Shown here: in pieces, positions 18,230-51,178 of the stretch
Layout: each line of letters begins with the position of its first letter
How positions within the stretch are numbered: position 1 is the first letter of the stretch
Source: Syntrophorhabdales bacterium
GTDB lineage: Bacteria > Desulfobacterota > Syntrophorhabdia > Syntrophorhabdales > WCHB1-27
Assembly: GCA_035315185.1 (NCBI GenBank)
Contig: DATFYE010000203.1
Span: 26,101 to 90,100 of the forward strand
Reading direction: 5' to 3'
DNA: 64,000 bases
Program-made: the position numbers and the translations under genes
The notes under the pieces: generated by a model
What the model saw: the letters and a program-made list of their open reading frames with translations, nothing else
What the model was told of the DNA's origin: nothing
The model's database searches: none

Positions 18230-18300
18230 AACTTATCGATACCATAAGAATTAATCACTTGACATATAACCGCAGCCACACAAGTATATAATCGTATCCA
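18230..18300 (+). promoter_or_regulatory. conserved promoter/operator block, copy A
   Basis: AACTTATCGATACCATAAGAATTAATCACTTGACA...TATATAATCGTATCCA. It aligns with copies at 29793, 50009 and 51114. Confidence 0.55.
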
Positions 18301-18410
18301 ACGCGACACAATAGAGCAGGCTTTGGCACAGGCGAGCCTGAGCGATAGTCTGGATAATCGTGGTTTATAAATCCGGGTTTACCCGGAAAAAAACCGGGAA
18401 GGGGGAGGGC

Positions 18411-19238
18411 ATGACCATAATAACGATTTCCAGGTTTACGATGAGTGGCGGTGAAAGGCTGGCCACGTGTCTTTCAGAGAAATTAGGCATTCCATCATTG
18501 AGTCGCGAAGTGATCATTCAGGTCGCGAATCAGTTTGGCGTTTCTGAAGCCGCGCTTTGGGAACAGCTGGAAAAAACTAAAGGCGCATCCTCCGAGCGCG
18601 CCCTCTATCTGGCAGCTCTCCAGCTTGCACTGGCCGAGAGGGCTCAGCAGGGCCCTTTCGTCTACCATGGGCTCGCCGGCCATTTCCTCCTCAAAGGCAT
18701 TCCCCGAATTCTCAAGGTGGGCATCGTAGCCCCGCGTCAGTTTCGGGCCGAGGCACTCATGAGACAGAAGAACATTAGCATGGACGAAGCTGTCCGCTCG
18801 ATTCAGCGGTGGGATGAGCGCAGCATCAAATGGGCGCGTTTCCTTTACAATGTGGACTGGCTGGACCCCTCGTTGTACGATCTGGTGCTCAATATTGCCA
18901 GCGTTAGCGTGGAGAGCGCCTGTGAGATTGTCATCTGCGCGCTGAACCAGCAGGAGTTTAAGGAATTCCCTGGAACGCAGAAGATGATCGAAGATTTTGT
19001 TCTTGCCAGTCGCGTCAAGCTTCAACTGGCCACCCACGAACGGACCAAGGGGCTGGAATTGGAAGTCTCAGCGCAAGAAGGCGTGGTAAAAATCACGGGC
19101 CAGGTCCTTATGGGCGGGATGTTCTCCTGGGGAGGAAGGGAGAGCATTCGCAATGACCTGATTGAAGTCTCCAAAACGGTTCCAGGAGTCCAGAAGGTCG
19201 TGGTTGCTGTGGAAGGAAAGGCTGTTCCTCTCGAATAG
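18411..19238 (+). CDS. cytidylate-kinase-like family protein with C-terminal BON-like domain, paralogue 1
   Basis: The N-terminus ITISR..SGGE.LA..L...LGIP resembles Cytidylate_kin2. The C-terminal V.KITG......G........V..V.GV.KV is BON-like. The start is the ATG at 18411 after GGGGGAGGG. Confidence 0.7.
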   Translation: MTIITISRFTMSGGERLATCLSEKLGIPSLSREVIIQVANQFGVSEAALWEQLEKTKGASSERALYLAALQLALAERAQQGPFVYHGLAGHFLLKGIPRILKVGIVAPRQFRAEALMRQKNISMDEAVRSIQRWDERSIKWARFLYNVDWLDPSLYDLVLNIASVSVESACEIVICALNQQEFKEFPGTQKMIEDFVLASRVKLQLATHERTKGLELEVSAQEGVVKITGQVLMGGMFSWGGRESIRNDLIEVSKTVPGVQKVVVAVEGKAVPLE

Positions 19239-19272
19239 AGGCGCAAAAAATTCCTCGGGTCGAAGGAGAGCG

Positions 19273-20208
19273 ATGAATATTTATCTGCCCATTGCGCACA
19301 TGAGCGTAAACATCTTTCTCCTGGTGGGCCTCGGTGGGTTAGTAGGTTTTCTTTCGGGTCTGTTTGGCGTAGGGGGAGGCTTCCTCTTGACTCCTCTTCT
19401 TATTTTTGCCGGAATTCCGCCGATGGTTGCTGCAGCCAGCGATTCGAATCAGATCGTGGCTGGTGCTGCGTCCGGGGCCTACGCCCACAGCCGCATGGGG
19501 AACGTGGATTTCAAGATGGGCATCACCCTCCTTCTCGGCGGGATCACAGGAGGGTCCATAGGAGTGCAGATCATCAAAGTCCTGGCTGCGCTCGGCCAGG
19601 TAGACTTTGTCATTAAGCTCATCTACGTGGTAATCCTGGGACTGATCGGCGGCTTCATGTTTATCGAGAGTCTTACAGCTTTGAGACGCACACGGGCTGT
19701 GCCGGAAAATGACTTCTTCGTGGAACCGAGGGAATCAGCCCTGCGAAAGCTCGCCGCGAGACTCCCTTTGCAGATGACGTTCGAAAAATCGCACATGACC
19801 ACATCGGCTATCTTCCCGTTCTTCCTGGGGGCTGCTGTGGGACTCCTGGCTGCCATCATGGGTGTTGGCGGAGGATTCATCATGGTGCCGGCAATGATCT
19901 ATATCCTAGGCATGCCCACGATCGTCGCCATTGGCACGGATCTGTTCCAAATTGTGTTGACCTGCATCAATGTGACTATCCAGCAGGCGATACTCAACCA
20001 CACGGTTGACCTGGTTCTGGTAGTGGTCCTCTTTTTCGGTTCAACGATCGGCGCCCAAATCGGTGCCCGGGTTGGCAGGCGCCTTCGGGGAGAGCAACTG
20101 CGTATCCTTCTCGCCATCATCGTGCTGGTGGTGATGATCAAGATGGTCTACGATTTAGTGGTGACACCTGACAACGTTATCGGCCTCGCCAGGGGAGGTG
20201 GTCACTGA
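19273..20208 (+). CDS. TSUP (TauE/SafE) family anion permease 1
   Basis: It has the two-repeat signature GLFGVGGGFLLTPLL and AIMGVGGGFIMVPAM plus GTDLFQI. The start is the ATG at 19273 after GAAGGAG. Confidence 0.8.
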   Translation: MNIYLPIAHMSVNIFLLVGLGGLVGFLSGLFGVGGGFLLTPLLIFAGIPPMVAAASDSNQIVAGAASGAYAHSRMGNVDFKMGITLLLGGITGGSIGVQIIKVLAALGQVDFVIKLIYVVILGLIGGFMFIESLTALRRTRAVPENDFFVEPRESALRKLAARLPLQMTFEKSHMTTSAIFPFFLGAAVGLLAAIMGVGGGFIMVPAMIYILGMPTIVAIGTDLFQIVLTCINVTIQQAILNHTVDLVLVVVLFFGSTIGAQIGARVGRRLRGEQLRILLAIIVLVVMIKMVYDLVVTPDNVIGLARGGGH

Positions 20209-21011
20209 TGCGGTTATTGATAGTGACCTTTCTTGTCGTGACAGCTTCTTTCATCGCTTTGGTAAGTCTGGGAGATGCGGCGCAAGGGCCATCCGGGCCC
20301 GAATGTTTGCAGATGGATCCTCCATTCCTCGAAAGGACATTATTCCTTAAAGCCGTCCATACAATGACCATAACCGGGCCACGTCCTGAAGGGTGCGACA
20401 TCATTCTCAAAATTGTTTCTCCGGTCCGCGATTTCAGGCTGAACAAGTCCGGAAAGGGTCTCGGGTTTGTCTGGTTGCCCGTAGGCCATGCCGAGGTTAA
20501 GGAGATTCCCGCGATGTATCAGGTTCTGAGCTCGGCAAAGATTACAGATATCCTTCCCCCTGCCGAACAAGAGGCGACGGGCCTGACCCTGGACTACAAG
20601 GAAGTCTATGAGCAGTGCAAGGTCCATTTTGAAAAGGATATGCCGCACAATGAAATTTCCGCCCTACGCCGGGAATACGTTTCCGGATTAATCAAGATTT
20701 TCAAAGACGCAGGACTTTATCTCAGACAGGAAGGAGCGATCCAGATCAACGGGTCTCAATTCAGCGCACGAAGCGTGCAACCCTCTGACGCCCCTCTCGG
20801 TGAATATAAGGTCTTTTGCTATGCGGTCCAGGACGGCAAGGCCCGTCTCATTTTTCAGGACAAGTTTTTGGTCAAATCAGGAACGCTGGGTCAATGGCTT
20901 GCTTACCACGCCCAGGCGAGCCCGGTGATTTATGGAGTCCTGGCAGCGGTGATCGCAGTGGCAGCTGGACTACTCGTCGGTGTCGTTTTTAGAAAAGGTG
21001 GCTCACATTAG
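20208..21011 (+). CDS. periplasmic protein with C-terminal membrane anchor (architecture resembles TIGR02186/Alph_Pro_TM), TSUP partner
   Basis: Signal peptide, a soluble region of about 220 aa, a single C-terminal TM (VIYGVLAAVIAVAAGLLVGVVF) and a short basic tail. The start overlaps the TSUP stop (TGATG). It is homologous to the N-terminus of the 22239 protein. Confidence 0.6.
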   Translation: MRLLIVTFLVVTASFIALVSLGDAAQGPSGPECLQMDPPFLERTLFLKAVHTMTITGPRPEGCDIILKIVSPVRDFRLNKSGKGLGFVWLPVGHAEVKEIPAMYQVLSSAKITDILPPAEQEATGLTLDYKEVYEQCKVHFEKDMPHNEISALRREYVSGLIKIFKDAGLYLRQEGAIQINGSQFSARSVQPSDAPLGEYKVFCYAVQDGKARLIFQDKFLVKSGTLGQWLAYHAQASPVIYGVLAAVIAVAAGLLVGVVFRKGGSH

Positions 21012-21145
21012 ACTTTGCTTGGCTATAAGTCTGCTTCATACCCTTTTTCCGCCGCTAACCTGCTTCTTGTAGAAATACCCATGGGTCTTGCTTTCATATG
21101 GTGTCTGGATGAGCGCTGGCAGCTCGCTGACCAGTCCGTAGCCTG

Positions 21146-21296
21146 TTATACCAATTCGCCTTCAAGTGTATACCTTCGTTGTCGCTGCGGCGCTTTCCTC
21201 GACGTACTGCTCAGTACGCCTGCGTCAGCTCCTCGCTGCCGCCCGGGGTACCCGGCCGAAGGCTGGGTCGTCCATCTTGAATGCAGATTGGTATTA
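21146..21296 (+). repeat. MITE-like inverted-repeat element, long form, copy 3
   Basis: Termini are TTATACCAATTCGCCTTC ... GAATGCAGATTGGTATTAG. The internal GTACTGCTCAGTAC and GGGGTACCC palindromes are shared with the copy at 61924-62095. Confidence 0.55.
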
Positions 21297-21312
21297 GATT
21301 GGAGGTAAAGCT

Positions 21313-22230
21313 ATGAATATCTTCCTACCCATCGCACAGATGAGCGTGAGCATCCCGGTAATTTTTGCTGCGGGCGGGGTCGTCGGGCTGCTGTCCGGCC
21401 TCTTCGGCGTCGGCGGTGGGTTTCTGCTCACGCCGCTGCTGATGTTTTTAGGTATATCACCCGCCGTCGCGGCAGCTTCCGACGCGGCGGCTATCGTAGC
21501 AGGATCGACAACCGGTACGCTTGAACATTCACGGGGGCGCACAGTCGACTACAAAATGGGTTTCTGGCTCTTCGTGGGCGGATCCGTCGGTAGCGTCGCC
21601 GGCGTGGAATTGATCCACTGGCTTAACCGCTTCGGGCCTGCCAACAGTGCCATTCGCATCTTGTATTTAGTCATGCTCGGGGTGATCGGTGGCATTATGC
21701 TGGTGGAGTCAATCGGGCAATGGCGGCGCGGTGCGTATATGTCCGAGAGAAGATTCGAGCCGATACGCGCGCGGAGATGGGTCGAGGCCCTGCCGTTCCA
21801 GGTTCGATTTCCAAAGTCGGATATCCAGGTTTCGTTGCTGGTTCCGATTGGCTTCGGCATGCTGGCCGGTGTACTTGCGGCGATGATGGGTGTGGGCGGT
21901 GGCTTTATCATGATCCCGCTGATGCTTTACATATTGCGCATGCGGATACACGTGGCAGCGGGCACAAGTCTTTTTCAGATCCTTTGCACCTGCATGCTGG
22001 TCACCGTGTTGCAAGCCACGAAGAACCATACAGTAGACTTCGTGCTCGCCTTCCTCTTGGCTATAGGCACGACGACCGGCGCAATGATCGGTACCAGACT
22101 CGGGCGTCGATTGCGGGCCGACCAGCTCAAGATTCTAATGGCTCTAATCATCCTCATAGTAGCCTGCCAGATAGGGTGGAATCTTTTCAGCACGCCCGCG
22201 ACCTTCCTTTCGCATGTCGCGGGCGAATGA
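21313..22230 (+). CDS. TSUP (TauE/SafE) family anion permease 2
   Basis: It is a paralogue of 19273-20208, starting MNIFLPIAQMSV where that protein starts MNIYLPIAHMSV. It has GLFGVGGGFLLTPLL and AMMGVGGGFIMIPLM. GC-rich. Confidence 0.8.
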   Translation: MNIFLPIAQMSVSIPVIFAAGGVVGLLSGLFGVGGGFLLTPLLMFLGISPAVAAASDAAAIVAGSTTGTLEHSRGRTVDYKMGFWLFVGGSVGSVAGVELIHWLNRFGPANSAIRILYLVMLGVIGGIMLVESIGQWRRGAYMSERRFEPIRARRWVEALPFQVRFPKSDIQVSLLVPIGFGMLAGVLAAMMGVGGGFIMIPLMLYILRMRIHVAAGTSLFQILCTCMLVTVLQATKNHTVDFVLAFLLAIGTTTGAMIGTRLGRRLRADQLKILMALIILIVACQIGWNLFSTPATFLSHVAGE

Positions 22231-22238
22231 GGTGAGCC

Positions 22239-25200
22239 GTGAATAAGCAAAAAGCTCATGCTCTAAGCGTCGTGAGTATTGCAATCGGGCTGGTGTGGAT
22301 ACTTACCATTCCAGTCGCGCATGCGGCTAGGTTTTCTACAGTCGAGCCCACGCGTATCTCGGCCGGCGTGTTTTATGACGGCGCCACCTTGCACGTTCGG
22401 GGCAGCATCGGTGAGGGATCTCAAGTAGTGGTCCGGATAAAAGGGGCGTCAGAGCATCATGTGTTCAACCGTCGCGGCAAGATCGGCGGGATGGTGTGGG
22501 GCGGCATCGAACATGTCACGTTCCGGAACGCACCGAGCTTTTATGCGGTTTACACCTCGGTGGCCTTAGCGACGACGGCTACCCCGGCCTTGCGCGCAGA
22601 GCTCCAGCTCGGCTATGATCCGCTGGAGGCGAAGATGGAGGTTGAAGGAACAAAGGTCGATAAACACGTGATGATCACCCACTTCGTGCGCTTCAAGGAG
22701 AGCGAAGGTCTGTACCGCATCGCATCCGGAGCGGTGCACCTCGAAGACCCTCAAGGGGGCTCTCGCTCTTTTGATGTAGCGGTACCGTTGCCTGCTAGCA
22801 CGCCCCCCGGTGATCTGGAAGTCGCTGTCTTCGAACTCGCCAATGGCGCAGTGATCCGTGAAGAGACAGCCCGCGTGAGTCTTGAGCGGGTTGGCTTACC
22901 CGCCGATCTCTTTCGCCTGGCGCATGAGAACGGTATCCTCTTTGGGCTGCTCGCACTCTTCGTCACCGTTACAACCGGAGTCGTTGTGGATTTCCTCGGG
23001 CGAGTCGGACGAAGGGGGGCATTGTATAACCGCGGTCCCATGCTGGATGTGGCGGCAGACCTGCATCGGCTGGTTGCGGAAGGCCTGTTTAGCGTTCGCG
23101 TGAGACCGCGCTCCCCCGCGGCAGTGGAGCGCCTTCACGAGAAGTACCGACTCTTCCGTAACCTTCTCACGCTGAACAACGAACTCCTCGAACTCCTTGC
23201 AGAACTGGAGGAAGAATCGTCGTGGTCTTCACTGCGCCACCCGCGGGTGCGCATGGGTATCCGGGCGCTCTTCGACGGCACCGAGGATATGGTCCAGGTA
23301 TTGAACCAGCTCACAGGAAACCGCTATTTTGACCTGAAGAATGTGATCGCGAGCGTGCGTGCCGATGTTCTGGCCTACCTCGAGAAAATGCCAGAACGCG
23401 AGGGGAACTCCCTCATGCTCCAGTTGAGGGAGATCAGCTCGAAGACCGCGGATCAGGTGGGAGGCAAGGCCGTGAACCTGGCACGCGTGGAGTGCGATCT
23501 CGGAATGCGCGTGCCCGAGTCCTTCGTGGTAACCACGGAGGCTTATCGACAGTTGCTGGAGGTTGAAGGGCTCGCAGGCAAGTTGCGCACCGTCCTTGCG
23601 CCTGCGCGCCTCGACGCGCCGGAGGACTTTCGCCGGCGCTGCGAGATGGCACAAGGTTTGGTCCAGGAGGCGTATTTGCCGCCGGCTGTAGAGGAGGCTC
23701 TTCGCGCTGGTTACCGCGCCGCAGGCATCCCAGCGGGAGAGTGCGTCGCGGTGAGATCCAGCGCGGCGGGTGAAGATAGTGAGTTGTCCTTTGCCGGCCA
23801 GTTCGAAACGCTCCTCAACGTGCCTGAATCGGAGGTGCCGGAGGCCTGGAGGCGGGTTGTGGTCAGTCGGTTTTCACCTCGGGCCGTGTTCTATCGGCGG
23901 GCAGCAGGTCTCGCCGAAGTCGACACGCCCATGGCTGCGCTCATTCAGCGTATGGTGCGCGCCACGACCTCCGGTGTAATGTTCACACGTCGGCCTGAGC
24001 ACCCGAAGGTACCCGAGCTTCTCATCACCGCTGTCCGCGGGCTTGGCCTCGAAGTATCTGCCGGCATTGCGAGCGCCGACGAATTCGTAGTATCGCGTAC
24101 TCAGCCATCGCGGATCCTGGAGCGACGCATCGCCCTGAAGCCGGATCGCCTGGTAAGCGGGGAAGCCGGCGGCGTCACCAGAGTGGAGGAAGCAGCTGAG
24201 GAACAGGATAGTGCGGCGATCACCGACGAGGAGGTTATTCGGATCGCCGACGCGGGTCTCAGTCTCGATCGCTACTTTCGCAGTCCCCAAGACGTTGAAT
24301 GGGCTATCGACAGCGAGGGCGTACTCTTTATCATGCAGTCCCGGCCGATCAGGACCGACCGGACAAAGACCGCACCTGGAGACACACCCCGCAACGCCGT
24401 GCTCCTTTTGCACGGTGGGGAGCCTGTCTGGGCTGGACGGGCCGTCGGCCCGGTCCACGTGGCGAGGAGCCCGGAAGAGGAGGACCGCACTCCGACCGGT
24501 GCCCTCCTTGTGGTTCCCCAGCTCCTGCCTGATTGCGTGCGTCTTCTTCCGCGGGTGTGCGGTATCGTGGTGGAGCGCGGAACCGTCACCGGCCACGCTG
24601 CGTCGATCTTGCGGGAGTTTCGGGTGCCGAGCCTCTTCGGCGTGACAGGCGCGCTTGATAAGCTGGTCTCCGGCCAGGTAGTGAGTCTCGACGTGGCTGC
24701 TCGCAGTCTGTTTGAGGGCGTTCTTTGGCCCGAGCTGCGCCAGCGTCTTGCTGTCAGGTTGCAGGGCCGCCGGACTACAGGATTGCCGGAGGTCCTGGCG
24801 GGAAAGCTCACGAAGCTGAGTGGGAGCGGTTTTATGGGTACCTGGGCGTGTCAGTCCCTGCATGATGTCATCCGGTTCGCCCATGAGATGGCCATCCAAT
24901 CGATGTTCGACATCGGTGACCGGCTTCTGGATTCGCCGGTTGGGGGCGTCAAGCGGCTTGATTCCCCTTCGAAGGCGTACATGCACATCGTCGATCTCGG
25001 GGGAGGGCTGCGGCCCGAGGCATTGTCGAACCAAAGCGTGAAGCCGGAGGATGTTGTATCGATTCCGTTCCAAGGACTCTGGCGCGGCTTGAGCGACCCG
25101 CGGTTCGAACGCAGCTCGGACGTCCCGGCCCAATCGATTCGGTCCGCCATCGGGACTGGCCTGGCAAGCGCAGGCCCGCGGGAGGGAAGCCCTAACTACG

Positions 25201-25616
25201 CCTGCATCACGGAGAGCTACCTTAACCTCAATTCACGGCAGGTCCACCACTTCGCGATCGTCGACGCGTTCCTTTCTGACAACCAAAATAACAACCACAT
25301 CAGTCTTCGCATGAAAGGCGGCGGCGGTGCCCCTTGGCAACGCAACCTTCGGGCAGAGTTTGTCGCAGAGGTCCTACGTTTGCACCATTTTACCGTCGAC
25401 GTCGCAGGCGATCTCGTGAATGGCTGGACCCGAGGACTCGACCTTTCCATGGGCGCTGACAAGCTGACAATGATCGGGCACTTGCTCAGCTTTTCAGCGC
25501 TGCTCGATCTCTGGATAACGGGCGAAGCCCAGATGAAACGATACGTTGCGGAATTCGTGGAAGCGGAGGCTCGCCGCTCAGCAGATGATTCTCAAGCCGA
25601 TCCAAAGGGGGTATGA
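22239..25616 (+). CDS. fusion protein: periplasmic/anchor TSUP-partner domain + dikinase core (ATP-grasp + swivel His) + family C-terminal domain (P1)
   Basis: 1125 aa with a GTG start after GAGGTGAG. Residues 1-250 are homologous to the 20208 protein (NRRGKIGGMVW vs NKSGKGLGFVW; PSFYAVYTS vs PAMYQVLSS). A TM helix follows. The remainder carries VGGKAVNL, VRSSAAGEDSELSFAGQ, DVEWAID, TVTGHAASILREF and the C-terminal NY.CI.ESYLNLNSR.VHHF..VDA block. Confidence 0.8.
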   Translation: MNKQKAHALSVVSIAIGLVWILTIPVAHAARFSTVEPTRISAGVFYDGATLHVRGSIGEGSQVVVRIKGASEHHVFNRRGKIGGMVWGGIEHVTFRNAPSFYAVYTSVALATTATPALRAELQLGYDPLEAKMEVEGTKVDKHVMITHFVRFKESEGLYRIASGAVHLEDPQGGSRSFDVAVPLPASTPPGDLEVAVFELANGAVIREETARVSLERVGLPADLFRLAHENGILFGLLALFVTVTTGVVVDFLGRVGRRGALYNRGPMLDVAADLHRLVAEGLFSVRVRPRSPAAVERLHEKYRLFRNLLTLNNELLELLAELEEESSWSSLRHPRVRMGIRALFDGTEDMVQVLNQLTGNRYFDLKNVIASVRADVLAYLEKMPEREGNSLMLQLREISSKTADQVGGKAVNLARVECDLGMRVPESFVVTTEAYRQLLEVEGLAGKLRTVLAPARLDAPEDFRRRCEMAQGLVQEAYLPPAVEEALRAGYRAAGIPAGECVAVRSSAAGEDSELSFAGQFETLLNVPESEVPEAWRRVVVSRFSPRAVFYRRAAGLAEVDTPMAALIQRMVRATTSGVMFTRRPEHPKVPELLITAVRGLGLEVSAGIASADEFVVSRTQPSRILERRIALKPDRLVSGEAGGVTRVEEAAEEQDSAAITDEEVIRIADAGLSLDRYFRSPQDVEWAIDSEGVLFIMQSRPIRTDRTKTAPGDTPRNAVLLLHGGEPVWAGRAVGPVHVARSPEEEDRTPTGALLVVPQLLPDCVRLLPRVCGIVVERGTVTGHAASILREFRVPSLFGVTGALDKLVSGQVVSLDVAARSLFEGVLWPELRQRLAVRLQGRRTTGLPEVLAGKLTKLSGSGFMGTWACQSLHDVIRFAHEMAIQSMFDIGDRLLDSPVGGVKRLDSPSKAYMHIVDLGGGLRPEALSNQSVKPEDVVSIPFQGLWRGLSDPRFERSSDVPAQSIRSAIGTGLASAGPREGSPNYACITESYLNLNSRQVHHFAIVDAFLSDNQNNNHISLRMKGGGGAPWQRNLRAEFVAEVLRLHHFTVDVAGDLVNGWTRGLDLSMGADKLTMIGHLLSFSALLDLWITGEAQMKRYVAEFVEAEARRSADDSQADPKGV

Positions 25617-25713: not shown

Positions 25714-28305
25714 TCAGTGTGTGACTGTTTTCTTGAAAGTGTAATTCCCCTGCATGAAGGCTTTGATGTACCAATCAACTACATTGTCACTGTACATCGC
25801 CATATCGAGCTGGCGCGCGCAACACATGAGCCTGCCCAGGTAATCGAGCTTCTGTTCTATAGCCCGGCACTCGTATTTCCCTAATCGGGCCCGCAACCAG
25901 TCTCCTTTCACCTCTACATCAAAGTCCAGGTTCTTTAAAACCCCCGCAATGAAGCGGACCCTGCGGGATCTCCTTTCCGAGCTGGAGCCTCCTCCCATAA
26001 ACTGAAATGAAATATAGTTATTATTCACCTCGGGCGAGCAGTAGGCATCGACTGTGCTGAAATGATAGGCCAGACGCGAACTGAAGTTCATATATTCCTT
26101 GGAGATGATGGCGTAACTCTTTTCACCCAATGGAGTGCCCGTGCGGGCGGAATCGGAGAGTGTATTCAACATAACGGAGGCAAAGCCTTTGAGGTCAACC
26201 TCTACCATCCCAGTCCAGCAGATCTTCGGATGGGTTATTCCTCTCCACAGGGCCTGCATCGGTCTCGAAACGATCTCTTCCGGTGGTACAGAACCCCCGG
26301 CCTTGTCCGGGACAGATAAGCCCCCGCCCAGATCGATGATGTACAGATTGATAGGGATGTCGGAAACAACCTGCTTGGCCTGTTTGTCAGAAGACGTTTT
26401 CCAGTCGTGTAGATGGAACATCTCCTGGATGGCGACTTCATGCATGAAGCGGGTCAGGTCATGAAAGGTCTGGCAGTTTTCAGGTTTGAAAGAGCCTCCT
26501 TTCGTGTCCCATAAATTGAGAGATGCGGTACGCGAGAGGAGCTCCTCCACTTTTCTCACGAGGGGGGTCTCCCCACGGATTTCCACTTCTCTTCTCTTAT
26601 GGCCCCGGACCAACTCCTGCACCAATCCGTCGTAGACCTTGTTGTGGTAGGCATCTACTGTGATCATCTGGCCGTGTCGCAGCAGTTTGGTGGCATCCTT
26701 AGCATCGACGATAGTAGGGACTTGAGATTCTCTCGCGAGAGAAGCCATATGGCCGGCCACGTTACCTACCTCAGTGATGATTGCCGAGGCTTCATCCATG
26801 ACGGTGGCATATTTCGGATGGGTACTCTTAACGACCAGAACAGCCCCATGTGGAAACGGGTGCAAATCCCGGTCTTCAAGCACCATGTGGACTGGACCAG
26901 CCCCAACGCCCGGTGCAGCCGCGAGACCCCAATTGATGAGGACTCTATCTGTATAAGGATCGTGCTCGACGTCTTCCTCTTTCGTCTCCGTCGACCCCGA
27001 AGAAATTTTTAGATTGCGCGTTTGCAATATATAAATCTTCCCTTCTGAATCTATTGCCCATTCGATATCACGAGGGCTCTGATAATACTCCTCCAAGAGC
27101 ATGGCGTAGCGAAAGAGTTTTTTAATCTCGTCTTCATTGAGGCACGGCTGCTGCTGAAGTTCGTCGGGAACCGGCACTTCGGTTACGCCCCCCGAGTCCC
27201 TGCAAACGAGCATTGTCCTTTGTTCAGGGATCCTTTTTTCCAAAAGAAGGCCGTTTTCTTTGGAGACTACATAAACGTTCGGGCTGGCCCGCTCCGCAAC
27301 GAGTTCCCCCAAACCCCATATGGCGCTGATGATCACCACGTTTGGGTCGCTATGGCTGGGGTCCCGGGAGAATATCACTCCGCTGGTTCTAGCACAGATC
27401 ATGGCTTGGCAACCCACAGCCATAGGGATGTCTTCTTCGTTGAATCCTTTTTCTTTCCAATAGAAGATGGCTTCAGGCGTGAATTTGCTGGCGACAACTT
27501 CTTTGTAAGCGGAGAGGAGGCGATCGGGACGGACGTTCAACACGGTGGCGTATTGTCCTGCGAAGCTGACATCGCCGTCTTCCTTGATTGCACTGCTACG
27601 GACCGAGACAGAAATTTCTCCTTGCCCGCCTGTCCTCACGGCCGTGGATAGTCGATTGTATGCTTGGAAGATGGCTTCTTCCAATTCGAGCGGAATAGAT
27701 GCATCGTGAATGGCTTCCCGAACCTCGTGGCTGATTCGATCCAAGGCTTGCTGGTCACGAATGTCAAGGGCAGCTAATCGCTTCTTGATCTCTTTTCCGA
27801 AAACCATTTTTTCGACAAAGATTTTGTAAGCGTACGCGGAGACCGCAAACCCTTCCGGAATGGGAAGCCCGACATGGTTTCGCATTTCTCCCAGATTAGC
27901 GCTTTTGCCCCCCACTGTTTCGCCCATCTCCCTGGTAACCTCTTCCAGCGGGATAGTCAGGGGGGAGAGAGCGATCTCTCTGACACCGAAAACCTTTTCT
28001 TCAATCCCGTGGTCTATCTTTTCAAACACCTCATACAGCAAACCGTACCGATCTGGAACCATGCTGTTCAGCGCGTCGATCATCTGCAGGACCTTTTCCC
28101 GTACTTGATTGTAACTGTCCCGTATGTACCGACGGTCGAAGTGATAATCTCCCTGGGCATACTTCCCTTCCATATCACCCATGACCTCTAGGGCGGCGTT
28201 ATTCGCCTCGAGGAGGGCCTGAAACGATTGAAAGCGTTCTTTTAGACTCGGGAGTTTCTGCTTTTTAAAATATTTTTGGAGATTCAATAATCCAAAAAGG
28301 GCCAC
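25714..28305 (-). CDS. dikinase-core protein with family-specific C-terminal domain (P2)
   Basis: 863 aa with a GTG start after AAGGAG. Motifs present: VGGKSANLGEM, PEGFAVSAYAY, VRSSAIKEDGDVSFAGQ, DIEWAIDSEGKIYILQTR, NVAGHMASLARE, and C-terminal DLGGG, ALWRG, NFSSRLAYHFSTVDA, NYISFQFMGGG, RQLDM. Confidence 0.8.
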   Translation of the reverse strand: MALFGLLNLQKYFKKQKLPSLKERFQSFQALLEANNAALEVMGDMEGKYAQGDYHFDRRYIRDSYNQVREKVLQMIDALNSMVPDRYGLLYEVFEKIDHGIEEKVFGVREIALSPLTIPLEEVTREMGETVGGKSANLGEMRNHVGLPIPEGFAVSAYAYKIFVEKMVFGKEIKKRLAALDIRDQQALDRISHEVREAIHDASIPLELEEAIFQAYNRLSTAVRTGGQGEISVSVRSSAIKEDGDVSFAGQYATVLNVRPDRLLSAYKEVVASKFTPEAIFYWKEKGFNEEDIPMAVGCQAMICARTSGVIFSRDPSHSDPNVVIISAIWGLGELVAERASPNVYVVSKENGLLLEKRIPEQRTMLVCRDSGGVTEVPVPDELQQQPCLNEDEIKKLFRYAMLLEEYYQSPRDIEWAIDSEGKIYILQTRNLKISSGSTETKEEDVEHDPYTDRVLINWGLAAAPGVGAGPVHMVLEDRDLHPFPHGAVLVVKSTHPKYATVMDEASAIITEVGNVAGHMASLARESQVPTIVDAKDATKLLRHGQMITVDAYHNKVYDGLVQELVRGHKRREVEIRGETPLVRKVEELLSRTASLNLWDTKGGSFKPENCQTFHDLTRFMHEVAIQEMFHLHDWKTSSDKQAKQVVSDIPINLYIIDLGGGLSVPDKAGGSVPPEEIVSRPMQALWRGITHPKICWTGMVEVDLKGFASVMLNTLSDSARTGTPLGEKSYAIISKEYMNFSSRLAYHFSTVDAYCSPEVNNNYISFQFMGGGSSSERRSRRVRFIAGVLKNLDFDVEVKGDWLRARLGKYECRAIEQKLDYLGRLMCCARQLDMAMYSDNVVDWYIKAFMQGNYTFKKTVTH

Positions 28306-29792: not shown

Positions 29793-29855
29793 AACTTATT
29801 GATACTATAACAATTAATGATTTGACTTGGTGTGGCCGGCCAATATAATTTCGGC
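29793..29855 (+). promoter_or_regulatory. conserved promoter/operator block, copy B
   Basis: AACTTATTGATACTATAACAATTAATGATTTGACT, then 16 nt, then TATAAT. Confidence 0.5.
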
Positions 29856-31159: not shown

Positions 31160-31162
31160 AAG

Positions 31163-31870
31163 ATGCTGATCGCCCGAAAAGGCCCTTTCATCCTTGGTAT
31201 GTTGCTATCCCTCTCCTTCGTCGGAGTACTCGCCCTCATCTTCTCACCCGTTTTTGGAGGCAAGAACGGGCTGGATTACGCTGACGATCTCTTCAACAAA
31301 TTATCCAAAGGATCCTCTTATTTTATCCCTAAACTGGTAAAGAAGAACGAGCAGAACGTGGGCAAATCATTTCGAGCCGTCTTCACTGTGGAAAAAAGGA
31401 GCGAGCAGATTGCAGAGGTCTTTGAGGCGGCGGGAGCAAGGGTCGACTTGCAGGGGAATAGCATGACCGTAGAAGGAGACCTGGGAAAGCTCTGCCAATC
31501 TGCTCTGGAGGATGCAAACTACGTGTTTAATAATGACGGCTCCAAAGTAGCAACGAGGTACGGCCGGGACGAACGTCAGGTCATGCAAGACTGGTGGACA
31601 GGTCTCACCAGGATGGAGAAATCATTTAAGAAAAATATGCAGATCAAAGAATCGGAAGCAATCTCTGAAGTAGTTCGGAAAGCTGTTGAACCTGCTTACA
31701 ACTTTTACAACGTGGAGGCGCAGAACGTGTCCGATCGCTGGGGCCTCATGTCCCTTATGCTGATTTTTTATGTGCTCTATACATTGTGGTGGGGCTATGC
31801 GATTCTGTATCTCTTTTTGGGATTGGGTCTCAGCATGAAGAGGGCCAAGGTGAAAAAAGAAGTGGGTTGA
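31163..31870 (+). CDS. membrane protein of unknown function (TM - soluble domain - TM)
   Basis: 235 aa with a GGGAGGAA Shine-Dalgarno, tightly packed after the permease. It has an N-terminal TM and C-terminal hydrophobic helices. No family recognised. Confidence 0.55.
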   Translation: MLIARKGPFILGMLLSLSFVGVLALIFSPVFGGKNGLDYADDLFNKLSKGSSYFIPKLVKKNEQNVGKSFRAVFTVEKRSEQIAEVFEAAGARVDLQGNSMTVEGDLGKLCQSALEDANYVFNNDGSKVATRYGRDERQVMQDWWTGLTRMEKSFKKNMQIKESEAISEVVRKAVEPAYNFYNVEAQNVSDRWGLMSLMLIFYVLYTLWWGYAILYLFLGLGLSMKRAKVKKEVG

Positions 31871-31903
31871 AGACGGGCCGGAAATAATGAAAGGAGGTTA
31901 AGG

Positions 31904-32197: not shown

Positions 32198-32226
32198 GAG
32201 TTACTTTAGCCGAAGGAGGTTCGACC

Positions 32227-33297: not shown

Positions 33298-33331
33298 CCC
33301 CAAATCGTCTACGTATAGGGAGAGACTCTGC

Positions 33332-33943: not shown

Positions 33944-33989
33944 GAGGGCGGAAGATAGAGTTGGCTTCCAGCTGTCGGCAAGAAACTCT

Positions 33990-36515: not shown

Positions 36516-36538
36516 GAAGGAAGGGCAGAAGGGGCTGC

Positions 36539-45061: not shown

Positions 45062-45074
45062 GTGGTTCCCTTCC

Positions 45075-47291
45075 TCATGATGTATGCTGGACCGGCATGG
45101 ACACCGTGAAATGGGTGCCGGTCGGTTTAAGGGGATTGTCCTCTGCCGAGGAACTGGAAAAGGTTATCTTTCCACCATATTTTTTTATGATACCGTAACA
45201 GAGTGACAGGCCGAGTCCAGTGCCCTCCCCCACATTCTTCGTCGTGAAGAAGGGATCGAAAATCCGGGGCTTGATGCGATCGGGAATACCGCTTCCTGTA
45301 TCGATCACGTCTACATGAACCCATTCTCCCTCTGCTCGGGCAGCGACCGTGAGCGTGTCCCCCGCTTCTCCCGTTGCCGCTATAGCATTGTTGATAAGAT
45401 TGAATATAACTTGCTGGAACTCCCGGGTATCGCCCCGAACCCGCGGCAGGTTCGCGGGGGTATCGGTGACAAGGGTAATTTTCTTAGTCATGAGCGTGTT
45501 CCGAACGATTCTGAGCACGGTGCTCACGCTGTGCTCAATATCTACCGTGTCCTCCAGGCCTTCACTAATGCGGGCAAACCCCAGTAAGTCCTGCACGACT
45601 TTCTTGGCATTGTTGGCGTTGTACTCGATGATCTTGAGGTCTTCATAGTCTGGTGAATCCGATGGGAACCGCTCTAGGAGAAGGTCAGCAAAGCCCAGGA
45701 TAACAGCCAGGGGATTATTTATCTCATGGGCCACGCCGGCTGCGAGCGTCCCGATGGAGGCCAGCTTCTCCGTGTTGTAAATCCGCTGGTCCATCTCCAT
45801 CCTTTCCGTTACATCCCGACTGATGCTGAGGAACTGATAGATCTCCTCCTTCTCATTCCGGATCGGGATGAGCTTGGTGCTAAGGTGAGTCTGACGGCCA
45901 TTGATGGTCAGAGTCTGCCCGAAGGAGATGCTCGATTGCTGTTCCAGCACCCGGTCCATCTGTTTGCGCATAAAAGCTATATCTTCAGGCCGGAGCAGTT
46001 CGTGCAGATCGCGCCCGACATAATATTCCGGCTGGCTAAGATGAGCACCTGTTGGAGCGTTTGTGTCGTCGGGCCCGGTAACTACGAGGTGCGAAAAAAC
46101 CTCTATACTATGGGGGTTCAAAAGCACTACCCGCATTTTCGTATCCAGGATGTAGATGAGGTCAGTAGCCTGCTCCACCACCCTCCGGTAGATTCTCTCA
46201 GTCTCCTCCAGGTCGGATTGCGTCCTCTCCACCCGTGCCTTCAAGTCCGTAGAGATGCGGCGCTGCTGCACAAACGCCAGGATACCAACCATAAAGACAG
46301 CGATTATCAGGGCTGTTTCAGCGATAATATGGCGGATATAGACCCAGTGGACCGTCTCAGAGACCTCGCTGATAGGCGCAGCTACTGCCACGGACCACAA
46401 GCCTCCGGGTGGCAATGCGTCACTCCTGACGGGTGTAAAGGCAATCAGTTTGGTGATGCGTCCTTCCATGCCCCGGTGCCAGCCGCTCTCATAAAGGCCC
46501 ACGCCTTCTTCACCCCGCAACATAAGTTCCTTCATGATCCGGTTAATCTCGGCGAAGCTGATGTACGGCTGCCGCTCTGCCCTGGCGGTGAAAGCATTCT
46601 TGCCGATAAAGGCCGCTTCCGGATGATAGAGGAACATCCCGCTTTGATCGATGACCCAGGCATATCCGGTCCTGCCGGAACGAATATCTCTTGTTACGCC
46701 GGCTACAAGACGAGAGACGTCCAGGCGTGCATAGAGCGCACCCTGCCCATCGACGAAGTTCATCGGCGTGTGGAACACACTCGTTACCATGACCCTTTCG
46801 TCTTCTCCGGGTTCCACCTGCAGCGGGCTAAGGTAGATTTGGCCCGAGGGGTCAGGGGGATACATCTCCGTGCTCTTTTTCAGGCGCACTTCAGTGCGGC
46901 GGCCGTCACAACAGACCTGGAGCAAATGGCGGGAAGGATCTATCACGCCGATCTCGATCAGCCCCTTATCCCTGGTCCGTTCTACCACCAATCGCATCGT
47001 CTGTTCCAAGGCGCGAACCTGCGTATACGGCTGAAGAGTCTTTAAACTCTTAACTTCGATTTGAAGATCTCTGAGGATCGCATCGATCTGGGATGCGGCC
47101 TGGCGGGCTAAGATCAACTGTTGTTGATTGAAGCTGTCATCGACCTGATGATGCATTACCCTTGAATTCGCATAGACCATCCAGAAGGCAATGGCAATCA
47201 CCGCGGCAAAGATGAGGGAACTGGCCAGGATCAGGTAGCGGGACCCGAGCAGTCTTTGAACCAGTCCGAGCACGCGGCTCGTAAGGCCCAT
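45075..47291 (-). CDS. sensor histidine kinase (Cache-like periplasmic domain, PAS, HisKA, HATPase)
   Basis: 738 aa. H-box AHEINNPLAVI, N-box LINNAIAA, DTGSGI, GTGLGLS. The ATG overlaps the stop of P5 (ATGA). Confidence 0.85.
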   Translation of the reverse strand: MGLTSRVLGLVQRLLGSRYLILASSLIFAAVIAIAFWMVYANSRVMHHQVDDSFNQQQLILARQAASQIDAILRDLQIEVKSLKTLQPYTQVRALEQTMRLVVERTRDKGLIEIGVIDPSRHLLQVCCDGRRTEVRLKKSTEMYPPDPSGQIYLSPLQVEPGEDERVMVTSVFHTPMNFVDGQGALYARLDVSRLVAGVTRDIRSGRTGYAWVIDQSGMFLYHPEAAFIGKNAFTARAERQPYISFAEINRIMKELMLRGEEGVGLYESGWHRGMEGRITKLIAFTPVRSDALPPGGLWSVAVAAPISEVSETVHWVYIRHIIAETALIIAVFMVGILAFVQQRRISTDLKARVERTQSDLEETERIYRRVVEQATDLIYILDTKMRVVLLNPHSIEVFSHLVVTGPDDTNAPTGAHLSQPEYYVGRDLHELLRPEDIAFMRKQMDRVLEQQSSISFGQTLTINGRQTHLSTKLIPIRNEKEEIYQFLSISRDVTERMEMDQRIYNTEKLASIGTLAAGVAHEINNPLAVILGFADLLLERFPSDSPDYEDLKIIEYNANNAKKVVQDLLGFARISEGLEDTVDIEHSVSTVLRIVRNTLMTKKITLVTDTPANLPRVRGDTREFQQVIFNLINNAIAATGEAGDTLTVAARAEGEWVHVDVIDTGSGIPDRIKPRIFDPFFTTKNVGEGTGLGLSLCYGIIKKYGGKITFSSSSAEDNPLKPTGTHFTVSMPVQHTS

Positions 47292-49843
47292 CAGGGAGCC
47301 TCTCCGTCGTTTGTTAAATTGAGTCTCTTTTTAAGATCTCGGATGTACCACTGGGCAATTGAGTCATCGGAAAGCGCCATATCGAGCTGTTTGGTCATCA
47401 TGCTGATCCGCCCCAGTTGCCGCAACCGCGTGAGGAGAATCGGGGCCGCTCCGTACGTGATCATGGCCTCCAGGAAGTCCCCCTTACTGGAGTTCTCGAA
47501 ACCCATCTGGGTCAGGAGCGCCGTGATTACCTTGATCCTTCGCAACCTCCTGTCGAGCGGTGCGCCTCCCGCCTTGTATTGCACGCGGATATAGTTCTTG
47601 CTTTCGGTCTCCGTGCAAAGCGCCTCGATGGTGGTAAAGTGGTAACCCATGCGAAGGCTGAGGAGCATATACTGCTTGCTTAATACGGCGTAGCTGTTTT
47701 CTGAAAACTCCGGCTTGGCTCCTTGCAGCATATTATTGGCCATGACGGTCATGAAGCCTTTCACATCCGCAGGAGGTGTTCTCGGCCAGCCTTCTTGTTT
47801 GATGCCCTCCCATAAGGCCTTCATCGGTTCGGACGCGATTTCCGAATCCTCCAGAAAGCGCGCGCCCTTGTGGTCCGGAGGCGGCTCGTCGAGACGCACA
47901 ATATCCACGGTCAATGGGATAGTACCGGTCTTCAGGCGTAAGCCCATCTGATCTTTGTGTTCGAGGTCGCGAGCCCCGCTGAACATCTCCTCCATTGCTT
48001 TCTGATGGGCGAAACGGGTCAGATCATGAAAGGTATGGCAACTTTCTACGCTGAACCCCGGGTCTGCCGGATTAAGCAGATTAAGCGGAGAGACACGCTG
48101 CAGGATTGATCCAAGCAGCATCATTATTTCCGTATCGGCCAACAATTCGAATTCCGGTTGGCGTGCCGCAATCAGGTCTTCGTGTAATCCGCTATAGATA
48201 ATAGCCTCAGTCGCATCAACGGTCACCAGCGTTCCCGAAGGCAAGTCTCCCGCCGCTTCCACTCCCGCCAGAGTGGGTACCCGGTATTCACGCGCTATGG
48301 TGGCCATATGACTGGCAGCACTGCCCACCTGGGTCACGAGAGCCTTAATCCGCCCCAACGCCGTAATGAGACCAGGGAAGGCATGGGGGGTCATCAGCAC
48401 CGCACCTTCGGGAACCAGAGCGAGATCCCTGGTAGAGGAGACATGGTAGACAGGCCCCCCACCGGCGCCGGGACAGACCGTGGTGCCGCCAGATACGAGA
48501 ACCTGCAGCCTGGATGTGTCGACGGAAGAAGATTTAGGCGCGGACTTGATGCCCAAGGTGCGCAAAGGCCGGGCCTGGAGCACGAACGGTCGGCCTTCCC
48601 TGTCGATCGCCCACTCAATATCTCCCGGGCAGCCACAATTTGCTTCGATTCTCAGCGCGAGCCTCGTGAGTGCATCGATGTCGATCTCTCGCAGCGAGGG
48701 CTTGGCCTGCTCGTCTACCGGCACGGGTTCTTCGATCAGACCCACGCCCTTCGCAGGTACGAGCCTCTTAACCTTTAGGGATGGTTTTGCGTCAAGGATG
48801 AAACCATCATTGCGGCGCACGCGGAAAAGATCGGGAGTCAGCGTTCCGTCCACGACATATGGTCCCAGCCCCCATATTGAATGAATAATGAGGGAGTCGG
48901 CTGAGCCCGAGATTGGATCCTGTGTGTAGATGACGCCGCTGGAGGATGCGTCTACCATCACCATGCAACCAACACTCATAGGCAGATCCGATTCTTTCAG
49001 ACCGTGACTCAAAAAGTAGTAGATAGCCTTCGGGCTGAATTTGCTCGCGAGTATCTCGCGATAATGGTCGAGCACTTTGTCCGCGCTTAAGTTCAAAAAG
49101 GTTGCATACTGGCCCGCGAAGCTGAAATGAGTGTCTTCACCTACTGCGCTCGAGCGCAGGGCGAACCGTTCGGCTCCGGTGCGCTTTGCCAGTTTCCCAA
49201 GTTCGGTCGTGATTGCCTCGGCTAGATCGTTGGGAACAGCACTTTCCCGAACCAGGGACTGAATCTCTTTGCTCACTTCCTCAAGCTCATCTAGGCTCTT
49301 CAAGTCGAACGACCGGAGGCGCTCAGTGATGCGATCCTGAAGCCTATTCGTCTCCATGTAGTGGAAGTACGCCCAGGCGCTGATGGCAAATCCATCGGGA
49401 ACCGGGAGCCCCATGCTTCTTAACTCACCGAGGCGCGTATTCTTACCGCCGACACTGGATGCTCTCCCACATCCAGCCTGATCCAAGGGTATTGTGAAGT
49501 GGTCGGGTACGACGGGCCGTTTCCCTGGCAGAAGCTCTTCAACCAGCCCATCGAGAAGAGCGAAACGATCCCGGAGAGGCACATAGGAAGGTCCTCCGAG
49601 GGCAATCATGTTCTCGACAATATCGGATACCCCGGCACGCATTTCTCCAACACGCGTCAGGACATAATTGAGATCAAAAAGATACTCGCCCTGTGTTTTC
49701 TCTTCCATATCGCTGATGATTTTGAGAACCTGATTGTTTTTTTCGAGGAGGGCTAAAAAATGATCAAACTTTTGCAGAAGAACTCTAAAGGCAGGCTGGG
49801 TCTCCTTTTCCCTGCCCCGGAATACTGACTGAAGCCATCTCAT
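47291..49843 (-). CDS. dikinase-core protein with family-specific C-terminal domain (P5)
   Basis: 850 aa. Motifs present: VGGKNTRLGEL, PDGFAISAWAY, LRSSAVGEDTHFSFAGQ, DIEWAIDREGRPFVLQARP, SAASHMATIAREY, and C-terminal ALWEG, NYIRVQYKAGGAPLDRRLRR, KQLDM. Confidence 0.8.
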   Translation of the reverse strand: MRWLQSVFRGREKETQPAFRVLLQKFDHFLALLEKNNQVLKIISDMEEKTQGEYLFDLNYVLTRVGEMRAGVSDIVENMIALGGPSYVPLRDRFALLDGLVEELLPGKRPVVPDHFTIPLDQAGCGRASSVGGKNTRLGELRSMGLPVPDGFAISAWAYFHYMETNRLQDRITERLRSFDLKSLDELEEVSKEIQSLVRESAVPNDLAEAITTELGKLAKRTGAERFALRSSAVGEDTHFSFAGQYATFLNLSADKVLDHYREILASKFSPKAIYYFLSHGLKESDLPMSVGCMVMVDASSSGVIYTQDPISGSADSLIIHSIWGLGPYVVDGTLTPDLFRVRRNDGFILDAKPSLKVKRLVPAKGVGLIEEPVPVDEQAKPSLREIDIDALTRLALRIEANCGCPGDIEWAIDREGRPFVLQARPLRTLGIKSAPKSSSVDTSRLQVLVSGGTTVCPGAGGGPVYHVSSTRDLALVPEGAVLMTPHAFPGLITALGRIKALVTQVGSAASHMATIAREYRVPTLAGVEAAGDLPSGTLVTVDATEAIIYSGLHEDLIAARQPEFELLADTEIMMLLGSILQRVSPLNLLNPADPGFSVESCHTFHDLTRFAHQKAMEEMFSGARDLEHKDQMGLRLKTGTIPLTVDIVRLDEPPPDHKGARFLEDSEIASEPMKALWEGIKQEGWPRTPPADVKGFMTVMANNMLQGAKPEFSENSYAVLSKQYMLLSLRMGYHFTTIEALCTETESKNYIRVQYKAGGAPLDRRLRRIKVITALLTQMGFENSSKGDFLEAMITYGAAPILLTRLRQLGRISMMTKQLDMALSDDSIAQWYIRDLKKRLNLTNDGEAP

Positions 49844-50008
49844 CGGCTTGTACCCCTTTTCTGCGGGGCGATTATGCTCCGCTGAATCCTGGCTTCGGCC
49901 TCAAACTAACGCTGTTCTTAGAAAGGGCCGACGAAGTCTTTGTCGCTTTTCCGGCACAGCCGCATCACGTTACTATACAACAGACCGCGGACAAGATCAC
50001 TTAAGAAT

Positions 50009-50070
50009 AACTTATTGATATCATAACAATTAATTATTTGACTTATGTTTGTCTGACTATATAATCGTAC
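50009..50070 (+). promoter_or_regulatory. conserved promoter/operator block, copy C
   Basis: AACTTATTGATATCATAACAATTAATTATTTGACT, then 16 nt, then TATAATCGTACCA. Confidence 0.55.
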
Positions 50071-50178
50071 CAAATTATGACATACCGTTGATGCTTGTTG
50101 CAAACAATTCTGCAAGCCGCGTTAATCAGCGGCTTCGTCGCTGGCGGGATACATATCTCAACGGAGAAGGGGGGAGCA

Positions 50179-51015
50179 ATGACCATAATAACGATTTCCA
50201 GGTTTACGATGAGCGGCGGCGAAAAGCTCGCCAAATGTCTTTCAGAGAGACTGGGTATTCCGTCCGTGAGCCGGGAAGTAATTACCCAGGTGGCGGATCA
50301 GTTCGGGATATCTGAGGCTGTTCTCGTAGAACAGCTGGAAAAGACGAAACGCGGACCATCGCCTGAACGCCGCCTTTACTTGGCATCGCTCCAGCTGGCG
50401 CTCGCCGAGAGGGCCCAGCAAGGGCCTTTTGTTTACCACGGGCTTGCCGGTCATTTTCTGTTGCGAGGCATTCCTCAGATCCTGAAGATTGGTATTGTTG
50501 CTCCGCTTAAATTGCGGGCTCAGAAATTGATGGAAGAGAAAAACATTAGCCCCGAAGAGGCGATTCGTTCTATTCAGCGGTGGGATGAAAGGCGTGCCAA
50601 TTGGGTTCGCTTTCTTTACGATGTGGATTGGCTGGACCCCTCGCTCTATGACCTCGTGATTAATATTGCCAGTGTCAGTGTAGACAGCGCCTGTGAGATC
50701 GTCATCTCCGCATTGAACCAGCAGGAGTTTAGGGAGGTTCCGGAAAAGCAGAGAATGATCGATGACTTTGTTCTGGCCAGCCGGGTCAAGGTGCAGCTGG
50801 CTACTCATGAGAGGACCAGGAGCTGGTTGGAACTGGAAGTGGAGGCTGAACAGCAGGTGGTGAAAATCACCGGCCGGGCATTAATGGGAGGAGGTATCTT
50901 CTACTGGCGTGGTGAAGACCGCGTCCGGGACGAACTCATTGAGGTGGTCAAGAGCGTACCAGGAGTAAAGAAAGTAATAATTGCCCTGGAAGGAGAGGCT
51001 GTTCCTGTCGAGTAG
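50179..51015 (+). CDS. cytidylate-kinase-like family protein with C-terminal BON-like domain, paralogue 2
   Basis: 278 aa. The first 33 nt of the CDS are identical to 18411-18443, and the protein is collinear with paralogue 1 throughout. Confidence 0.7.
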   Translation: MTIITISRFTMSGGEKLAKCLSERLGIPSVSREVITQVADQFGISEAVLVEQLEKTKRGPSPERRLYLASLQLALAERAQQGPFVYHGLAGHFLLRGIPQILKIGIVAPLKLRAQKLMEEKNISPEEAIRSIQRWDERRANWVRFLYDVDWLDPSLYDLVINIASVSVDSACEIVISALNQQEFREVPEKQRMIDDFVLASRVKVQLATHERTRSWLELEVEAEQQVVKITGRALMGGGIFYWRGEDRVRDELIEVVKSVPGVKKVIIALEGEAVPVE

Positions 51016-51113
51016 CAACAACTTGATTTCATTCCTCCCTTTCCCTGTCGTATGAATCGCATCATGCTCCCGGGCGGCCAAACCCGCAGAATCAGGGGTT
51101 CAGCATTAAGAGG

Positions 51114-51178
51114 AACTTATAGATATCATAAAAATTAATGAATTGACTTATAGGAGGGGCGAAATTATATAATCGTTC
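51114..51178 (+). promoter_or_regulatory. conserved promoter/operator block, copy D (upstream of sat)
   Basis: AACTTATAGATATCATAAAAATTAATGAATTGACT, then 19 nt, then TATAATCGTTCCA. It is followed by a leader of about 170 nt before sat. Confidence 0.55.

Follow-up and report, generated by a model that had tools for sequence, protein, structure and literature searches.

The stretch of DNA analysed here (the window) comprises 64 kb from a Syntrophorhabdales bacterium, and holds genes of dissimilatory sulfate reduction along with TauE/TSUP, cytidylate-kinase-like and PEP-synthase-like genes. Its subject of interest is a short block that recurs at four promoters in this region, and the LysR-family protein that may bind it. 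The pattern AACTTATNGATAYYATAANAATTAATNANTTGAC has four exact matches in the window, all on the plus strand: copy 1 at 18230-18263 (AACTTATCGATACCATAAGAATTAATCACTTGAC), copy 2 at 29793-29826 (AACTTATTGATACTATAACAATTAATGATTTGAC), copy 3 at 50009-50042 (AACTTATTGATATCATAACAATTAATTATTTGAC) and copy 4 at 51114-51147 (AACTTATAGATATCATAAAAATTAATGAATTGAC). Each contains the interrupted dyad TTAT-N7-ATAA, which includes the sequence T-N11-A; copy 1 has the perfect form CTTAT-N7-ATAAG and ends in TTGAC. The four copies and the inverted TTAT-N7-ATAA had been recognized in an earlier, sequence-only reading of this DNA, and both observations stand. There is no fifth site in the window at up to three mismatches, and 100 shuffled versions of the window gave none (chance expectation 0). 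A weight matrix built from the four sites, applied to both strands (128 kb), scores the sites themselves at 63-67 bits. The runner-up, on the reverse strand of site 3, reaches 11.7 bits. Since the 34-bp block is about 80% A+T and the window has a G+C content of 53%, four copies are not an effect of composition.

Each block is followed by TATAAT. The spacing between the TTGAC and TATAAT hexamers is 22, 16, 16 and 19 nt at sites 1 to 4, and direct reading of the four stretches agrees with the values reported earlier. A promoter scan predicts sigma-70 promoters at copy 2 (29822-29849, plus strand) and copy 3 (50038-50065, plus strand), both of the form TTGACT-16-TATAAT with 11 of 12 consensus matches; the -35 element of copy 2 is the end of the block. 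The scan makes no call at sites 1 and 4 because their spacers are too long. At site 1, TATAAT (18287-18292, plus strand) lies 22 nt after TTGACA, which exceeds what a standard sigma-70 promoter accommodates, and at site 4 (51168-51173, plus strand) it lies 19 nt after TTGACT. The TATAAT box had also been said to be extended in three of the four copies. The extension TATATAATCGT.CCA is exact at sites 3 and 4, but site 1 has one extra base (TATATAATCGTATCCA). When 140 nt around each copy are aligned, identity is limited to the block and the downstream TATAAT; the flanks and the TTGAC-TATAAT spacers cannot be aligned among the four. With the predicted hexamers as reference, the centre of the dyad lies some 19 nt upstream of the -35 element (roughly -54 to -60), which itself falls within the conserved span. 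We could derive no convincing internal dyad for the second half of the block; the only repeat there is a direct one, in which ACTTAT occurs again 31 bp downstream.

Genes were assigned with Pfam and NCBIfam, and the four targets named in the sequence-only reading were confirmed; all are on the plus strand. Behind copy 1 lies cytidylate-kinase-like paralogue 1 (18411-19238), in a unit (18411-25616) that continues with a TauE gene (19162-20208), an Alph_Pro_TM gene (20208-21011), a 97-amino-acid open reading frame, a second TauE gene (21313-22230) and a fusion of Alph_Pro_TM to a PEP-synthase-like protein (22239-25616). Copy 2 precedes an operon (29885-36937) that encodes TauE, two products without a family, a further TauE, DUF4881, another open reading frame, a Cache histidine kinase and a receiver-only response regulator. 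Copy 3 is intergenic, flanked by a PEP-synthase-like gene on the minus strand (47291-49843) and, transcribed divergently from it, cytidylate-kinase-like paralogue 2 (50179-51015). Copy 4 stands in front of sat (51346-52602), which is followed by DUF6955 (52628-52921), aprB (53045-53488), aprA (53515-55398) and qmoABC (55516-60247). These genes (51346-60247) are co-directional, with no further block between them. The two kinase-like paralogues had been labelled cytidylate-kinase-like/BON. Their Cytidylate_kin2 assignment is solid, but BON is a sub-threshold Pfam match (22.3 bits, with a cut-off of 27).

Related organisms carry the same block. We scanned species-representative genomes with the exact pattern CTTATNGATANNATAANAATTAATNNNTTGAC, and mapped the genes downstream of the matches by blastx and Pfam. 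There are 12 matches at 11 loci in seven metagenome-assembled genomes (MAGs), which are named “uncultured delta proteobacterium” or “Syntrophorhabdales bacterium”, and each MAG has just one or two exact copies. The downstream unit is sat-DUF6955-aprBA in five cases, dsrAB in four, a cytidylate-kinase-like gene in two and a TauE/Alph_Pro_TM module in one. The dsrAB products pass the DsrA and DsrB cut-offs (TIGR02064 and TIGR02066). At one locus (L004), a kinase-like gene and the TauE module are divergent, with one block each, back to back and about 100 bp apart; there, the TauE/Alph_Pro_TM module that belongs to the copy 1 unit in the window bears its own block.

Metagenomes were scanned with a relaxed pattern that lacks TTGAC, yielding 30 loci. 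Seventeen of these are in-lineage (G+C 0.47-0.59) and come from peat and wetland samples. All 17 continue with NNNTTGA(C/A), though the pattern did not demand it, and they precede dsrAB (8), sat (4), cytidylate-kinase-like genes (2) or TauE operons (3). The other 13 matches have a low G+C content (0.23-0.39) and neither TTGAC nor a related gene, and we discarded them as chance or unrelated. Six low-G+C contigs (L014, L016, L023, L033, L039 and L041) have ACTTATTGATAATATAAAAATTAAT and conserved flanks in common, which represents an unrelated conserved element.

Thus, the 29 in-lineage copies outside the window are all intergenic and aimed at sat-DUF6955-aprBA, dsrAB, a cytidylate-kinase-like gene or a TauE/TSUP module, and all 33, window included, share the TTAT-N7-ATAA dyad and the orientation of the downstream gene. 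Orthologues with a block are found for the operon behind copy 2 (L028, L020 and L031), for kinase-like paralogue 2 (L007 and L021) and for sat (L006, L008-L010, L012, L015, L024, L027 and L029). Among the 26 unique in-lineage sequences, the footprint of near-maximal information content begins about 9 nt before ACTTAT and extends to about TTGACTTATA; on either side of it, information is at background level. Across species the block is kept, and the flanks and the -35/-10 spacer vary. Weaker sites, found before cytidylate-kinase-like genes at four loci, keep CTTAT-N7-ATAAG and TTGAC and have lost the inner GATA. That these diverged sites retain the arms of the dyad points to protein contacts in the arms. 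These comparisons support the earlier proposal of a protein-binding operator that is joined to a promoter and ties sat to the TSUP and kinase-like island. Scattered occurrence at random genomic positions had been named beforehand as evidence to the contrary, and was not observed; the 12 exact copies in the seven MAGs all lie at promoters of one gene set.

The same comparisons add dsrAB to the set of genes with a block, and point to a candidate regulator. At one dsrAB locus (L002), the opposite strand carries a 299-amino-acid gene with HTH_1 and LysR_substrate domains, whose start is 18 bp away from the block. With tblastn and blastx we found this LysR gene in divergent orientation, its start 11-27 bp from the block, at 12 dsrAB loci (L002, L003, L005, L011, L018, L022, L025, L026, L032, L036, L037 and L052). 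The same arrangement occurs at three sat copies (L009, L015 and L029). L051 is the exception among the dsrAB copies with readable upstream sequence, as its nearest LysR gene lies at a distance of about 190 bp. This locus has two tandem LysR paralogues beside dsrAB (L051:5004-6888), the second with a half-decayed operator (GCTTATAGACAGCACAGGAATTGGCAGTTTGACTTATAATAGCC). Decayed lysR 5′ ends are recognizable beside the sat block in two relatives, with z scores against shuffled sequences of 50 (L012) and 11 (L008). A similar remnant was suspected by eye beside the sat block of the window and was rejected after local alignment to five lysR 5′ ends gave a z score of about 0.2.

The regulator does not fall into a named equivalog. 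Its best match is a selenium-metabolism-associated LysR family (224 bits, below the cut-off of 250), and assignment to CysB/Cbl fails because no NCBIfam cut-off is reached (148 bits versus 402). The closest solved structure is a LysR regulator of a cyanobacterial Rubisco operon (PDB 5y2v, E=1.7e-43), and CysB (1al3, E=4.6e-26) also ranks among the nearest solved relatives. In L002 we also observed a 582-amino-acid open reading frame with two NIR_SIR modules (L002:3661-5409, minus strand), located between dsrA (387 amino acids) and dsrB (354 amino acids). This is a tandem dsrB-dsrA fusion, or else an assembly artefact.

More distant homologues of the regulator keep the layout with other targets. 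A protein search returns a graded series, in which the homologues linked to sulfate reduction have 67-84% identity. The seven homologues at 51-61% identity that were examined all retain TTAT-N7-AT[A/G/T]A-N11-TTGAC in their intergenic regions, with one-base variants of the last element in two of them (TGGAT in L048 and TAGAC in L053). The distance from this operator to the start codon of the regulator is the same as in the sulfate-reduction loci, and in most of the seven regions a TATAAT-like hexamer and GTCAA follow. The correspondence is apparent when a distant region, AATTTATGGATATCATAAATATTATCAATTTGACTTATAGTAGCC...TATATTGTCAA in L043, is set against a dsrA copy, AACTTATAGATACCATAAAAATTAATGATTTGACTTATAGTAGCC...TATAATGTCAA. 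The divergent targets of the seven homologues are acyl-CoA synthetase, succinyl-CoA ligase, methylmalonyl-CoA mutase and carboxyltransferase/peptidase genes, and among the homologues at or below 61% identity that we looked up, none is linked to dsrAB or sat. A homologue at 42% identity has a different palindrome. With homologues at 51-61% identity (L043-L050, L053 and L054) beside such genes, the subfamily seems ancestrally tied to acyl-CoA (propionate/succinate) metabolism. Given that the layout is constant beside one LysR subfamily while the targets change, the block travels with the regulator. In comparative analysis, an element that stays beside one regulator subfamily despite changing targets is the standard sign of an operator that belongs to this regulator.

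We therefore consider the block to be most likely a LysR-type operator that overlaps a sigma-70 -35 element and that has been copied to several promoters. A LysR-family regulator most likely co-controls sat, apr, qmo and dsrAB, together with transporter and kinase-like genes, in uncultured peat-soil bacteria. For the central prediction, that the LysR protein binds the block, we estimate a probability of roughly 75%.

The established model of LysR-type transcriptional regulators (LTTRs) has a tetramer bound to two sites, one of high affinity for recognition, which includes a T-N11-A box, and one of low affinity for activation, close to the -35 element (PMC11739112). In the block, the recognition site would be the dyad (C)TTAT-N7-ATAA(G), which includes the T-N11-A LysR box. 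The second conserved half, AATTAAT-N3-TTGAC(TTATA), overlaps the -35 element, where the activation site would be. On the strand of the regulator, the scan calls a promoter TTGACA-17-TACTAT in L005 and L043. The -10 element of this promoter overlaps with the -35 element of the target promoter, and its -35 element lies directly next to the -10 element of the target, so that the two promoters are mutually exclusive. The ancestral module may have consisted of two fully overlapping, opposed promoters, TTGACT-16 to 19-TATAAT for the target and TTGACA-17-TACTAT for the regulator. The regulator mRNA would begin by crossing the operator, which would entail autorepression and a choice between the two promoters. 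Wherever the regulator gene is absent, as at all four copies in the window, the elements of its promoter (TAGTAGC and TGTCAA) are decayed, and the block and TTGAC are retained.

In this lineage, the operator and -35 element would have been copied to at least five types of promoter: those of dsrAB, sat-aprBA(-qmoABC), the cytidylate-kinase-like genes and two TauE/TSUP modules. One regulator could then switch the whole dissimilatory sulfate-reduction set, as well as candidate genes for transport and nucleotide handling. We infer that the regulator represses itself and controls these targets. Activation of the targets is somewhat favored over their repression. By analogy with CysB/Cbl, activation would respond to a small molecule, possibly a sulfur compound.

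Several observations weigh against this interpretation or parts of it. The dyad centre is approximately one helical turn closer to the promoter than the textbook position of -65. The -35 element is near-consensus and invariant, whereas promoters activated by LTTRs usually have a weak one. A TTGAC-TATAAT spacing that ranges from 16 to 22 nt is awkward for an activator that depends on the face of the helix, and a repressor fits equally well. Given the consensus -35 element and the variable spacing, the regulator could instead repress its targets. Scans with exact patterns find only sites that resemble the query, and would miss diverged sites, whether those of further regulon members or others elsewhere in the genomes. 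Finally, tblastn finds no LysR gene in the 64-kb window. The regulator of this genome is therefore assumed from relatives, of which L026 and L034 are the closest, and all four window copies would be acted upon in trans. In two relatives, the gene order is qmoABC, two CxxCxxCC genes, DUF5663, one or more LysR genes and dsrAB-dsrN-dsrC. The window has a different gene set after its CxxCxxCC genes, which implies that the regulator-dsrAB locus of this genome is elsewhere.

The block could, with low probability, be part of a strong constitutive promoter cassette, in which an UP-element-like A+T-rich stretch and a consensus -35 element were copied in front of highly expressed respiratory genes without a dedicated regulator. 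Its position at about -36 to -64 and its composition fit an UP element, it ends in TTGAC, sites 2 and 3 reach 11 of 12 sigma-70 consensus matches, and the lysR remnants show that copies arose by duplication. Genes for sulfate reduction are usually highly expressed. UP elements, however, are not conserved base by base, whereas here the G/C positions and the dyad are invariant across species and diverged sites retain exactly the dyad arms. A cassette of this kind also does not explain why the same layout occurs beside every homologue of one LysR subfamily with unrelated targets, or why TTGAC is invariant even where a spacer of 19-22 nt makes it a poor -35 element. Regardless, the block may contribute to contact with the alpha subunit of RNA polymerase.

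It is similarly improbable that another DNA-binding protein, such as the nucleoid-associated IHF or an unlinked regulator, recognizes the block and that the LysR gene is merely a member of the regulon. A+T-rich sites attract nucleoid proteins, and the window does encode two histidine kinases and a sigma-54 activator (62501-63964, minus strand). However, the three response regulators of the island have no DNA-binding domain, and the block is not a -24/-12 promoter. Moreover, a fixed distance between block and LysR start in unrelated organisms, with unrelated targets, is the classical signature of a cognate, autoregulated LTTR. Operators of two other known types were also considered. The Rex operator TTGTGAA-N4-TTCACAA has four matches in the window at three mismatches, versus 2.3 expected, and all of them are inside genes. 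The CRP/FNR-type TTGAT-N4-ATCAA has no ATCAA partner here, and TTGAT occurs at sites 2 and 3 only (the base before GAT is C, T, T and A at sites 1 to 4). The sequence-only reading had set both types aside, correctly on this evidence. A dispersed repeat or miniature mobile element without a regulatory role would account for near-identical copies in non-homologous contexts, but this explanation is already effectively refuted and we give it almost no weight. No terminal inverted repeats or target duplications were seen, the conserved part is only 34-50 bp, and a repeat of this kind would not be expected to be intergenic and co-oriented in 33 of 33 in-lineage copies, before one functional gene set, at one or two exact copies per MAG.

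The region around the four blocks has further features. Part of it (22239-49843) contains five PEP-synthase-like paralogues of about 850-870 amino acids with PPDK_N and PEP-utilizers domains. Four are at 25714-28305, 36934-39531, 40144-42753 and 47291-49843 on the minus strand, the last of these being divergent from block copy 3, and the fifth is the Alph_Pro_TM fusion at 22239-25616. Two Cache histidine kinases and three receiver-only response regulators are encoded in between. A membrane pyrophosphatase (4881-7325) and a MOT1/SulP-like anion transporter (15544-16674) are encoded near this island, without a block. The Sat protein of the window has an identical copy on a contig of a JGI soil metagenome. 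DUF6955 lies between sat and aprB in the window and in every related locus that we saw. The sat leader in the window is about 200 nt long (51174-51345). The sat leaders of relatives (L008, L010, L012 and L027) have a common segment, GCGGATGGGTYYTTTAAACCGGACATYGRATGGAGCAAMAGCCCC, immediately before the ribosome-binding site, and the window copy of this segment has diverged. A search with Rfam found no match anywhere in the window, the long leaders included.

The type of element proposed here is already known, and the regulon appears to be undescribed. Control of dissimilatory sulfate-reduction genes is known mainly from Desulfovibrio, through Rex, and no counterpart has been described in the uncultured sulfate reducers behind the hidden sulfur cycle of peat and wetlands. 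Among the papers that we searched, none describes a LysR protein that regulates dsrAB or dissimilatory sulfate reduction. The present comparison provides a concrete candidate pair, regulator and operator, for which in vitro tests require no culture, and a clear example of how a regulon may grow by the copying of an operator-promoter cassette. Shared control would also link the TauE/TSUP, cytidylate-kinase-like, DUF6955, DUF4881 and PEP-synthase-like genes to sulfate respiration, which makes them candidates for poorly known transport and accessory steps of the pathway.

A broader scenario is tentative. In uncultured peatland Thermodesulfobacteriota, a LysR protein from an acyl-CoA-linked subfamily may have been recruited as a dedicated master switch, through which dissimilatory sulfate reduction becomes inducible. 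The regulon would have grown by copying of the control region linked to the regulator, with fossil regulator 5′ ends left beside sat. If this scenario holds, the TauE/TSUP modules would transport sulfate or sulfite for the pathway, its AMP would be recycled by the cytidylate-kinase-like protein, and the PEP-synthase-like and two-component genes would be new accessory parts. The role of the kinase-like protein (18411-19238 and 50179-51015) in AMP recycling is a speculation by analogy, as the adenylate kinase of Desulfovibrio belongs to the Rex regulon together with sat.

In comparison with known systems, the operators at divergent LTTR promoters (BenM/CatM, CbbR and OxyR) are the most similar in form. 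Like the block, they have an interrupted dyad with T-N11-A and are conserved over about 50 bp, as far as into the -35 element, and the regulator gene is divergent with its own promoter overlapping the operator. They differ in that their dyad is centred at -65 rather than about -55, and in that the -35 element here is near-consensus. The putative operator described here moreover occurs at several unlinked promoters with variable -35/-10 spacing. The Rubisco-operon regulator (PDB 5y2v) shares the full-length LysR architecture; it is a distant relative with other targets and another operator sequence.

In function, the closest parallels are two systems of sulfur metabolism. CysB and Cbl control assimilatory sulfate uptake, activation and sulfite reduction in enterobacteria, and the regulator proposed here would likewise be a LysR protein that coordinates candidates for sulfate transport, ATP sulfurylase and sulfite reductase. 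Its targets, by contrast, are dissimilatory (sat, aprBA, qmoABC and dsrAB), and it is only distantly related to CysB and Cbl. In Desulfovibrio, the redox-sensing repressor Rex has sites upstream of sat, qmoABCD, adenylate kinase and pyrophosphatase, with further sites predicted at dsrABD and apsAB (PMC4045070). The Rex regulon and the regulon proposed here place the same functional gene set under one motif, including a nucleotide-kinase gene (PMC4045070), but the protein family and the motif are different.

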